From: a virus
Taxonomy: Duplodnaviria; Heunggongvirae; Uroviricota; Caudoviricetes
Direction: 5' to 3' (one strand)
IMG/VR virus record: IMGVR_UViG_2547132488_000019
Coordinates: 1-12,996 of that record
Length of the DNA stretch: 12,996 nt
Part shown: positions 1,523 to 3,310 of the stretch, one piece after another
Position numbering within the stretch: the first letter of the stretch is position 1
How the letters are laid out: every line of letters starts with the position of its first letter
Program-made: the position numbers and the translations under genes
Notes under the pieces: model-generated
Seen by the model: the letters and a program-made list of their open reading frames with translations, nothing else
What the model was told of the DNA's origin: nothing
The model's database searches: none

Positions 1523-1586
1523 GCACTATCGGAAGTTCACCTGCCAACCACAGCACGTTCTTGCATACAACGTGCCTGCGGTTTTT
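1523..1586 (+). repeat. Direct repeat copy 1 (~64 bp, ~75% identical to 3126-3189)
   Basis: gcactatcggaagtt...gcacgttcttgcatacaacgtgc...ggttt versus gcactatcgaaagtt...gcacgttcttgcatacgacgtgc...ggttt; aligned by eye, same length, same orientation. Confidence 0.6.
1546..1586 (+). terminator. Putative rho-independent terminator after dinI-like gene
   Basis: Hairpin GCACGTT-cttgcatac-AACGTGC (1553-1575), extendable with a bulge, followed by TTTTT (1582-1586). Moderate stem GC content. Confidence 0.45.
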
Positions 1587-1788
1587 CGAGACTATTCTGA
1601 CCGCCATACTTACACATCAACCTGGCGCACATCCAGAGAAAGTATCTCTTTTGCATTCCGAAGATTCAAAGAGTTAGCCTAATTTTCCAGATAGTTTTCT
1701 CGACAAATCTGAGGTATTTTGGTTATCGATATAGTGCTTTGGCTGAGGAACAGCATTAAATTCAACCATTTTATTCATAGGGATTAAA

Positions 1789-2793
1789 ATGCAAGATACA
1801 GACGTTTACGTATACATAGGCGATGTTCACCGCTCTGGTCATCACGACATCACCAAAGCGATTAAAGAAAGAAAAACTAACCATGGTTTACAAAAAAATG
1901 TTCTTTTTTGCGTCGCTACCTATGGCGGTGATCCCAGCGCAGGATATAGAATTGGCCGCGCTTTGCAACACAACTATGAACACATCACCGTTCTAGTTGT
2001 TGGCCCTTGCAAAAGTGCTGGAACCTTGATGGCTGTCGCCGCTCATAAGCTCGTGATTGGTGATATGGGTGAGCTTGGTCCTCTAGACATCCAACTTAAG
2101 AAAAATGATGAGATCGGCGAATTGAGCTCGGGCCTTGTTATCGCAACGGCGATTGATGAAATAAAAGAGTGCGCTATTTCGACCTTTAGATCATACGTAC
2201 TTGATATAAAGTACAGAAACCAAATTAGCACGAAGATGTCTGCAGATATTGCTGCTAAGCTTACTGAAGCAATCATATCGCCGATGGCCTCACAGATAGA
2301 CCCCATCAAACTCGGGGAGCATCAACGAGCAATGAACATAGCGCTTTCCTATGGGGAGCGTTTGAATAGTCACTCGAAAAATCTTAAGGAAAGCTCCTTA
2401 GGCAAGTTGATCGCTGGATATCCAGCCCATGGTTTTGTGATAGACCGTAAAGAGGCGAGGGAACTATTCAACCATGTTGAGAGTCCTACAGACTTTGCAG
2501 CCAACCTGTACGAAGTTCTTGGTGAGATGATTTCGTCAGGCGAAATCTCTATCTTCGACAAACCGGTGATTAAAGATTTAACTCCTAAAAAACAATATGA
2601 AACAACTAACGCAGAGGAAGATTCCCATGACAACAGCAGAATTCAGGAAGGAGATGAAATCTCTGACCAAAATTCAGGAAGAGCAGAACCGCCAAGGGAT
2701 GAACCTGTCCAGGGAAGCGATGGAAAACATGCGGAAATTGAAGAAGAGGCTGGAACCTTACCAGCAGAGCAACCAGATGAAGGCACTCAGTGA
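1789..2793 (+). CDS. ClpP/crotonase-fold serine-peptidase-like protein (S49/SDH-like) with acidic disordered C-terminal tail
   Basis: 334 aa; N-terminal ...NVLFCVATYGGDPSAGYRIGRAL...ITVLVVGPCKSAGTLMAVAAHK... lines up with the ClpP/SppA motifs (SPGG...AG...GxAAS), giving Ser76 as candidate nucleophile and Lys104/105 as candidate base; last ~70 aa are Asp/Glu-rich. SD AGGGA 5 nt upstream. Family call is from motif memory, not from a search. Confidence 0.55.
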   Translation: MQDTDVYVYIGDVHRSGHHDITKAIKERKTNHGLQKNVLFCVATYGGDPSAGYRIGRALQHNYEHITVLVVGPCKSAGTLMAVAAHKLVIGDMGELGPLDIQLKKNDEIGELSSGLVIATAIDEIKECAISTFRSYVLDIKYRNQISTKMSADIAAKLTEAIISPMASQIDPIKLGEHQRAMNIALSYGERLNSHSKNLKESSLGKLIAGYPAHGFVIDRKEARELFNHVESPTDFAANLYEVLGEMISSGEISIFDKPVIKDLTPKKQYETTNAEEDSHDNSRIQEGDEISDQNSGRAEPPRDEPVQGSDGKHAEIEEEAGTLPAEQPDEGTQ

Positions 2794-2814
2794 ATATTGT
2801 AGTTTCTGATTGAG

Positions 2815-2845
2815 GACCTCGGCTACTACGCCGGGGTCTCTTTTT
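2815..2845 (+). terminator. Rho-independent terminator of the peptidase-like gene
   Basis: GACCTCGGC-tactac-GCCGGGGTC (9-bp GC-rich stem, one G-U pair) followed by TCTCTTTTT, 22 bp after the stop codon. Confidence 0.65.
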
Positions 2846-2963
2846 ACATCACTGGACAGTCATCAAACTCCGCATTCCTAGCATCGTGATGATGTACGTG
2901 ATTGCTCCGAATATTGAGTGTGAGTAATTGTAGCCACCACCATCATCTGGCAGTGCTTCCGTT

Positions 2964-3310
2964 CTCCAGATTTATCAGGTGGGACTAAGGGTGAGTACGA
3001 TATCGCTTAATCCTGAAACTCCATTTCAGACAGGGCCCCTATTACAGACCGAAAGACCACAGATAAGTAGTTTGTTCATAAATTAATGCGTAGAATCAAT
3101 AACGGCTGGAAATCATTCAATACTCGCACTATCGAAAGTTTGCCAGCCAGCCGTGGCACGTTCTTGCATACGACGTGCTACGGTTTCATTTATCTCCCGA
3201 AACTCCATTTGGATTTATCCGGTGCGCCGTAAAACCCCGTCCTTCAGGGCGTGGAGGATGTCAACTGGACGCACTGGAACTGGTCGATACTTCCGGTGCG
3301 CCAGATATTG
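2964..3310. repeat. Cluster of short degenerate repeats in the 520-bp non-coding gap
   Basis: GATTTATC(A/C)GGTG(G/C)G at 2968-2983 and 3211-3226; GAAACTCCATTT at 3014-3025 and 3199-3210; CCGGTGCGCC at 3219-3228 and 3293-3302. Confidence 0.4.
3126..3189 (+). repeat. Direct repeat copy 2 (partner of 1523-1586)
   Basis: See copy 1; contains hairpin GCACGT(T)-cttgcatac-(G)ACGTGC, extendable to ~12 bp with G-U pairs. Confidence 0.6.

Follow-up and report, generated by a model that had tools for sequence, protein, structure and literature searches.

Direct repeats around a protease-like gene in a tailed-phage sequence are probably two independent copies of a conserved terminator element of coliphages

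We analyzed a 12,996-nt stretch of DNA from a tailed phage of the class Caudoviricetes (IMG/VR record IMGVR_UViG_2547132488_000019, positions 1 to 12,996; referred to here as the window), in which two imperfect direct repeats bracket a gene for a peptidase-like protein. Both repeats are contained in a sharply bounded, noncoding element of ~100 nt, to which we gave the name R; it consists of a stem-loop whose conserved loop measures 35 nt, a terminator hairpin, and a U-rich tail. We interpret the repeats as two independent copies of R (R1 and R2) that were left as the footprint of moron accretion and do not represent the ends of a mobile element, and we put the probability of this reading at about 0.78. 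Comparison with related phage loci supports the view that the bracketed gene is acquired cargo. The coordinates of the window features are collected in Table 1.

The initial annotation had described two repeats of the same length and orientation with a hairpin in common. The direct repeat is real: a repeat finder recovered it as an ungapped match of 53 nt (1523 to 1575 and 3126 to 3178; 83% identity), and R1 and R2 are 78% identical across 64 aligned columns, with a longest unbroken identity of 16 nt. The hairpin is likewise shared, since its core, GCACGTTCTTGCATACRACGTGC, occurs exactly twice in the window versus 0.00 occurrences expected from 200 shuffles. When a covariance model built from 47 other R copies was scanned over the window, only two matches were returned, at 3090 to 3189 (117 bits; E = 1e-23) and at 1492 to 1587 (48.9 bits; E = 5e-8). 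However, the two copies are not equivalent. In phages mEp460, cdtI, and SKA5 and in the loci L003 and L004 (L numbers designate the loci compared here), the dinI stop codon is followed by ~41 nt ending in CGTAAAATCGGTAACGGCTGGAAATCATTCAATACTC and then by GCACTATCG. This stretch is kept in R2 and missing from R1, which, relative to the canonical dinI-R arrangement of L003, mEp460, and SKA5, lacks the first 41 nt of R and with them the 5′ strand of its first hairpin (SL1). In contrast, R2 is full length, carries the tail TTTCATTTAT after its terminator stem, and has a predicted fold of −34 kcal/mol (z-score of −2.9). Homology to the canonical dinI 3′ end plus R spans 3066 to ~3189 and includes a degenerate relic of a second dinI gene; the R2 region is thus longer than first reported. 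The proposal that the first repeat doubles as the terminator of the resident dinI-like gene fits its position, as R1 begins 4 nt past the stop codon (1517 to 1519) and continues into a hairpin and a run of five T residues. The cargo protease gene and its own terminator, which starts at 2814, do lie between the two copies, as had been described.

Evidence that this gene was gained came from relatives. Locus L057 (order int-dinI-R-tfa) is collinear with the window on both sides and lacks positions 1527 to 3065, a 1,540-bp cassette, and thus represents an empty-site allele. Window positions 1 to 1526 match L057 4451 to 5976 (96.5% identity), positions 3066 to 3391 match L057 5953 to 6278 (95.1%), and the tail genes continue collinearly beyond the right match. 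Within L057 these two matches overlap on the dinI 3′ end, so that the right junction of the cassette falls within the 3′ end of dinI and outside R. A second relative, SKA5, continues from int-dinI-R into an intact pin gene and an invertible tail-fiber segment. The third, L003, resembles a donor: its dinI gene and full R precede the left arm, protease gene, and debris found in the window, the debris being fused to a truncated pin, and its R is single, with no second copy beyond the protease gene. The cargo gene therefore has the marks of a moron, as it sits between features that are adjacent in relatives (dinI-R joined to tfa in L057, dinI-R-pin in SKA5) and is followed by its own terminator. 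Earlier, it had been proposed that the gene was acquired, or could be lost, by recombination between the repeats. Acquisition agrees with the collinear empty site in L057, whereas loss was not observed and the longest identity between the copies is 16 nt. A comparison with related phages, suggested along with that proposal, returned both the empty-site allele and alternative cargo in the same slot at other loci.

The copies share their orientation, are similar in length, and lie 1.6 kb apart, as would be expected if the dinI terminator had been duplicated in tandem and had then diverged, or if two unrelated terminators resembled each other by chance. Chance is excluded by the pattern and covariance-model statistics given above. 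As for duplication, the nearest copy to R1 is the R of a GIY-YIG cassette in L004 (94% identity), whereas R2 shares 98% identity with the only R of L057 and with a copy in L010. Among the neighbors of R1, R2 ranks only 72nd of 105; 71 copies from other loci are closer, which excludes a local duplication. The junction between R2 and tfa is, moreover, common to HK97 and L057, both of which lack the cassette. Given 78% identity between R1 and R2 and the closer similarity of each to copies from unrelated loci, the pair is neither a local duplication nor a set of transposon ends, and we attach next to no credence to duplication or chance as an explanation.

Comparison of the window with these relatives suggests how the two independent copies came together. 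A recipient resembling L057 (int-dinI-R2-[pin relic]-tfa) would have taken up a 1,540-bp segment from a donor resembling L003, on which the end of dinI was followed by R1, the left arm, the protease gene and its terminator, and the pseudogene remnants. On the left, a homologous crossover presumably took place in dinI or int; the right join appears to have been illegitimate, 17 nt before the dinI stop codon of the recipient. Because both parents ended in dinI-R, the product would carry dinI-R twice, on either side of the cargo. Viewed locally, the feature is a moron added beside a conserved terminator and homology patch, that is, an ordinary phage gene gain. More generally, R sits where leftward transcription meets the convergent tail-fiber late operon in lambdoid and related Escherichia coli phages; the leftward transcription runs either over the int-xis region with att and sib or over a dinI gene inducible by the SOS response. 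There, it would end the dinI or early-left transcript and so keep antisense read-through out of the tail genes. Since R is conserved between otherwise unrelated phages, it probably also acts as a homology patch, a preferred place where flanking modules are exchanged between phages, and morons would accumulate just downstream of it.

Using 108 nt of copy 2 as the query, we found R in 5394 of 5426 complete E. coli genomes, at 16,266 places in total (median of 3 and maximum of 11 per genome); 195 phage records match the same query. In lambda, R lies between ea31 and ea47 (24169 to 24256); in HK97, it lies directly beyond the annotated sib (order int-attP-sib-R-tfa); and in phi80, it follows the divergent dinL gene. 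The element is also present in mEp460 and in many Shiga toxin (Stx) phages. In K-12, the Qin prophage carries R ~190 nt inside its left end (order ydfJ′-R-ynfT-ydfK-pinQ), and the Rac prophage retains a hairpin-only relic near its ttcC end; no R match was found in the chromosomal dinI locus and 3′ region of K-12. The borders of R are sharp in an alignment of 78 unique copies, where the contexts diverge right before (C/T)GTAAAATC and right after the hairpin tail. Single-nucleotide indels occur within the conserved part, which shows that R is noncoding. Long open frames on both strands had raised the possibility of a coding relic, which we rejected on account of these indels and of the lack of a start codon common to the different contexts. 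The HK633 record labels the whole intergenic region as attP, but R is not part of attP: it lies beyond sib in HK97, 3.3 kb from attP in lambda, and beside unrelated integrases. A genome-wide species scan of 596 Gb was made with a 15-base pattern that was too short, so that almost all of its matches are due to chance, and it supports no taxonomic conclusion.

The sequence contexts of R were surveyed in 135 copies, drawn from 119 IMG/VR contigs (found through a motif from the 5′ part of R), the window, and the loci collected earlier. These copies fall into 22 left-flank and 29 right-flank clusters in 56 combinations and are thus mosaic on both sides. The left flank is dinI in 60 of the ~135 copies; elsewhere it is a host gene at the prophage end (ydfJ, pbpG-like), a lambda-type int-att-sib region, or something else. 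To the right lies the pin invertase gene, the tail-fiber assembly gene, the tail-fiber gene, or cargo, the latter including ydfK-type cold-shock genes, a CxxCxxCC protein, DUF4145, a methyltransferase, a GIY-YIG nuclease, a GGDEF/MASE4 protein, NleG, NEL-ligase effectors, and cdtABC. R is thus a constant landmark at the edge of the slot for accessory genes that separates the att/int side from the tail fibers.

More than 90% of the surveyed loci have one R. Two copies were found in 7 of the 119 contigs with the 5′-part motif (BLAST), and the covariance model adds a second copy in L026; direct repeats around cargo are present in the window and at least 8 other loci. Lambda itself (L007; J02459) has two copies in direct orientation, at ~22567 to 22658 (just after tfa) and at 24169 to 24256, which bracket ea47. 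The lambda copy beside tfa, R′, has diverged (35.9 bits) and has kept its hairpin via a compensatory change. L325 carries two copies (5668 to 5769 and 7138 to 7238), and L340 carries three (564 to 662, 2288 to 2383, and 4343 to 4443), with two cargo blocks between them; the blocks between the stacked copies of these two loci include open reading frames of 229, 141, 517, and 271 amino acids. The GIY-YIG and methyltransferase cassettes are also bounded by R, with a second copy that consists of the hairpin only. L301 and L283 carry reciprocal hybrids of the two SL1 variants, as crossovers within R would give; R1 and R2 of the window are not chimeric.

That direct repeats bracket cargo in the window and at these other loci could also mean that R serves a cassette system as its recombination site, comparable to att, integron attC, or pix sites, at which the adjacent tyrosine integrase or a Pin invertase would insert and excise the cassette. 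A tyrosine recombinase gene and pin relics lie near the repeats in the window, and one arm of a Pin-like half-site adjoins copy 1. However, the half-site match is no better than chance and lacks a second arm, and the bracketed segment contains no recombinase gene, its open reading frames being the protease and pseudogene debris. The copies are only 78% identical and come from different lineages, the right junction lies in dinI, and most loci have a single R. In addition, the repeated unit varies, as it is full plus truncated here and full plus hairpin only in the GIY-YIG and methyltransferase cassettes. We therefore consider a dedicated cassette system very unlikely.

Other identities of sites near the repeats were rejected as well. 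The initial annotation had linked GGTTTTTCGAGA, just after copy 1, to half of a crossover site in the tail-fiber gene. This ungapped match of 10 of 12 positions is no better than chance (0.94 expected per window; two or more in 44 of 200 shuffles), and the link was abandoned together with the assignment of a Pin crossover site. A 26-bp site of the pix/gix/hix/cix type consists of two inverted 12-bp half-sites around a central dinucleotide; beside R1, one arm is present, and the other side is the terminator stem. Finally, R1 and R2 do not qualify as attL and attR in view of their longest shared identity of 16 nt, their different lineages, and the lack of a recombinase gene in the bracketed segment.

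Single R sequences fold as two adjacent hairpins (z-scores of −2.6 to −3.3). The first, SL1, is formed by GGCTGG and CCAGCC separated by 35 to 38 nt; it is followed by a terminator hairpin of 11 to 14 bp and then by a more or less U-rich tail. RNAalifold applied to a MAFFT alignment misfolded the terminator (a bulge displaced its 3′ arm) and was replaced by per-sequence folds and covariance-model alignment. Covariation was scored in two samples, the first of 106 matches aligned to the covariance model built from 47 copies and the second with added loci that were collected by a hairpin-only pattern, so that SL1 was not preselected. Changes on both sides of a pair were seen in 6 of the 11 pairs of the terminator helix in the first sample and in 9 of 11 in the second, where 93% of cells were paired versus at most 50% with slid partners; none of 500 shuffles reached the observed values. 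These compensatory changes across homologues bear out the earlier suggestion that the hairpin is a reiterated element. SL1 hardly varied among the matches of the first sample. Among those of the second, 15 distinct sequences have A-U in place of G-C at the closing pair of SL1, and two-sided changes were seen in 3 of the 6 SL1 pairs. The SL1 loop (TCATTCAA..CTCGC.CTATCGAA) is more conserved than either stem and nearly invariant across flank contexts and both SL1 variants. On the basis of these sequence comparisons, the terminator stem of R appears well supported and the SL1 stem moderately supported.

R probably acts as a transcription terminator of dinI or early-left transcripts. The predicted energies of the terminator hairpin range from −6 to −23 kcal/mol across the family (per-sequence folds), and both window copies have the sequence features of intrinsic terminators, with the R1 stem followed by five T residues and the R2 stem by a U-rich tail. 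Several points weigh against this picture of terminator and moron accretion. A simple terminator scan called neither R1 nor R2, because their 9-nt loop and bulged stem fall outside the rules of the scan, and several R members, such as those of SKA5 and L019, have a poor U-tract. The covariation counts come from model-fitted alignments of related sequences and are thus biased towards structure. A terminator alone does not account for conservation that is stronger in the SL1 loop than in the terminator stem. Lastly, the order of events is reconstructed from three present-day genomes, and a circular intermediate that integrated via one crossover would yield the same product.

The near invariance of the SL1 loop would be accommodated if R had an RNA function in addition to termination. 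R could then be a small RNA (sRNA) comprising SL1 and the terminator, either stand-alone or derived from the 3′ untranslated region (3′UTR) of an SOS-induced dinI mRNA or of early-left transcripts, or it could be a cis-acting element for mRNA stability. Two copies would then be present since each phage module brings its own, and this view is compatible with moron accretion. The two-hairpin fold, the retention of SL1 pairing through the G-C to A-U change and the two-sided changes in its stem, and the presence of R in phages without dinI (lambda and HK97) are all consistent with such a role. There is also a precedent in DinR, an Hfq-dependent sRNA derived from the dinI 3′UTR of Klebsiella pneumoniae (PMC10907235). 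Similarly to DinR, R1, like most R copies, corresponds to the 3′UTR of a dinI-family mRNA under SOS regulation and has a terminator hairpin at its end. Unlike DinR, R has no homology to the chromosomal dinI 3′ region (the K-12 locus was compared, not the Klebsiella DinR sequence itself) and no support for pairing with ftsZ, as pairing with the ftsZ leader was no better than that of shuffled sequences (6.8% of shuffles were as good). Furthermore, R matches no Rfam family at threshold, the K-12 reference has no noncoding RNA annotation at the Qin copy, and the R sequence was not found in the literature or supplements searched, including those on Pas sRNAs. R1 lacks half of SL1 and hairpin-only copies exist, which indicates that SL1 is dispensable at some loci, and the covariation in SL1 may trace to one or two events. 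We regard a function of R as an RNA beyond termination as doubtful.

Two other RNA identities were considered for R or its matches. The 3′-terminal hairpin of the Rfam model for CssrB (Shigella chromosomal sRNA B; RF02799) aligns to the reverse complement of the R hairpin. However, copy 2 scored 32.2 bits and copy 1 scored 16.3 bits against a gathering score of 76, and the alignment covers ~47 of 180 model positions, on the minus strand. The notion that CssrB is the 3′ end of a pin mRNA was rejected, as loci with an intact pinE beside R gave no CssrB match at the gathering score. The anti-sRNAs of enterohemorrhagic E. coli (EHEC) were likewise rejected as candidates for R, being located at PR′ and not at the position of R. 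The Rfam family IS009 (RF02111) scored ~220 bits inside the tfa genes of lambda, Qin, and Rac (L007 4243 to 4441, L009 4379 to 4577, and L012 3755 to 3953), which indicates that this RNA family overlaps the coding sequence of tfa; for the tfa gene of the window, no IS009 match reached the gathering score.

R was further compared with known phage systems. It resembles lambda sib/tI, which is annotated in HK97, in being structured and noncoding, in its location a short way past attP, where the leftward operon ends, and in including an intrinsic terminator. The two elements are distinct, as R begins directly after sib in HK97 and has no sequence similarity to it, and R is not known to have an RNase III role. 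Accessory genes of lambdoid phages are described by the moron concept (Juhala et al. 2000; Hendrix et al.), and morons are also mentioned in PMC4104026. Like morons, the window gene is inserted between features that are adjacent in L057, has its own terminator, and belongs to an accessory region (tail fibers to att/int) that also hosts effectors, toxins, and defense-type genes. It differs in that its slot is marked by a conserved ~100-nt module that is duplicated on accretion and in that no consensus promoter was matched for the cargo gene.

The closest parallel in layout is offered by the promoter-early stem-loops (PeSLs), mobile regulatory cassettes of T4-type phages (Arbiol et al. 2010; PMC2839356). 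In both cases a conserved intergenic motif of ~100 bp with a terminator stem-loop flanks variable accessory open reading frames, and these frames are present or absent between relatives that have one or two motifs. Chimeric motifs indicate crossovers inside PeSLs, and the reciprocal SL1 hybrids of L301 and L283 may reflect the same in R. Unlike PeSLs, R belongs to temperate lambdoid and Mu-tail phages and usually numbers 1 to 3 copies per prophage instead of dozens, and the right junction in the window is illegitimate and does not join motif against motif. Consensus inspection and a scan of R revealed no promoter-like hexamer pair on either strand that would correspond to the sigma-70 promoter of PeSLs. 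As R lacks the promoter that defines PeSLs, it is not a member of that family. Under a broader proposal, temperate coliphages would have in R a structured RNA not described before, which occurs in >99% of E. coli genomes and whose invariant SL1 loop acts specifically (as a trans-acting or an mRNA-stabilizing 3′ element released with SOS-induced dinI or early-left transcripts); alternatively, R would be a cassette motif that actively promotes exchange of accessory genes from R to R, the lambdoid counterpart of a PeSL. We find this improbable.

The local feature is ordinary, a moron beside a terminator in a phage region already known for exchangeable cargo. Of wider use is that one ~100-nt element marks the left border of an accessory-gene slot in most E. 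coli lambdoid prophages. Beside R lie cdtABC toxin genes, type III effectors (NleG and NEL ligases), a GGDEF protein, nucleases, and proteases. As a sequence landmark, R could serve for finding prophage cargo, locating prophage ends, and mapping the breakpoints of recombination between phages. An RNA function of the conserved loop, if there is one, would add a very widespread phage RNA to the E. coli catalogue.

Table 1. Positions of R copies, cassette parts, and neighboring genes in the window
Feature	Position	Strand	Details or basis
Tyrosine integrase gene	112-1209		Left part of window
dinI promoter region	1206-1260	+	Two SOS (LexA) boxes CTG-N10-CAG at ~1210-1225 and 1242-1257, read directly from sequence
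dinI-like gene, 82 aa	1271-1519	+	Pfam DinI, E = 1.1e-19; NCBIfam PRK10597, E = 2.1e-20
R copy 1 (R1), 5′-truncated	1523-1586	+	Terminator hairpin 1548-1581, T5 run 1582-1586; covariance model
Left arm of cassette	1587-1715	+	Alignment of window, L003, and L004
Cargo gene, ClpP-fold SDH-type serine protease-like, 334 aa	1789-2793	+	Weak family matches
Intrinsic terminator of cargo gene	2814-2839 or 2814-2849	+	10-bp stem, then CTTTTT; terminator scan
LexA-family (S24-like) pseudogene remnant, convergent to cargo gene	~2844-3017	−	Collinear with L003 RefSeq "LexA family transcriptional regulator" pseudogene
Internal relic of pin invertase gene, reads ..GALSEMEF	~3015-3046	−	Translated by eye; L003 "recombinase family protein" pseudogene
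Relic of last five codons and stop of second dinI gene (last 17 nt, degenerate)	3066-3082	+	Local alignment to L003 dinI-R begins at 3066
R copy 2 (R2), full length	3085-3195	+	SL1 3104-3148 (GGCTGG...CCAGCC), terminator hairpin 3151-3183, U-rich tail 3184-3195
Relic of pin invertase 3′ end (..GDK, then stop)	3186-3215	−	Compared with intact pinE stop in L004 and with HK97
Tail-fiber assembly gene (tfa), first gene of convergent late operon	3317-3919	−	Pfam Caudo_TAP, E = 5.9e-30

The cargo protein has two weak family matches, both below cutoff (Pfam SDH_protease, E = 2.9e-6; NCBIfam Clp_like_SDH, E = 5e-9). The ClpP-like SDH match covers residues ~20 to 106, and the C-terminal third of the protein is acidic and of low complexity. 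Its L003 orthologue is named "SDH family Clp fold serine proteinase" in RefSeq, and a search for defense-system identity with PADLOC gave no match for the protein. The left arm of the cassette, ~130 nt, is common to the protease cassette and the GIY-YIG cassette (L004 3146 to 3270), with GATTCAAAGAGTTAGCCTAATTTTCCAGATAGTTTTCTCGACA as its best-conserved part, and the homology ends ~75 nt before the start codons of the two cargos. This shared arm suggests either replacement of cargo inside a common frame or a shared regulatory region. No match to a sigma-70 consensus promoter for the cargo gene was found in 1587 to 1788; the conserved left arm could hold a weak or regulated promoter.

Downstream of the protease gene, the pin invertase gene is reduced to two short relics, and the alternative fiber segment is gone; SKA5, L003, and L004 retain pin and the invertible segment. 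With the invertase reduced to relics and the alternative segment lost, the tail-fiber specificity of this phage appears to be locked. A complete Pin-type crossover site (TTCTCCCAAACCAAGGTTTTCGAGAG) is present at 4341 to 4366, inside the tail-fiber gene. The same pin 3′ relic adjoins R in HK97, and the junction from R2 to tfa is identical in arrangement to that of HK97, with L057 collinear. On the minus strand beyond tfa, the tail-fiber gene is followed by a Mu-type baseplate module. G+C content is 41 to 47% up to ~3200 and 54 to 61% in the structural genes.

The dinI-like protein scored 73 bits with NCBIfam PRK10597, versus a curated cutoff of 111. A −35 hexamer, TTGACA, lies upstream of its gene at 1206, and the two SOS boxes occupy the same relative position as the annotated LexA site of the phi80 homologue dinL. 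Because both boxes are well formed and overlap the dinI promoter, the prophage dinI, and with it R1, should be under LexA control, as judged from the boxes. At the left edge, positions 1 to 23 of the window (minus strand) start inside sequence equivalent to a short coding sequence of SKA5 (L008 2399 to 2521), annotated "tRNA-dihydrouridine," just upstream of the same integrase. This arrangement hints that the integrase of the window and SKA5 targets dusA and that the phage carries a replacement 5′ end for the host gene.

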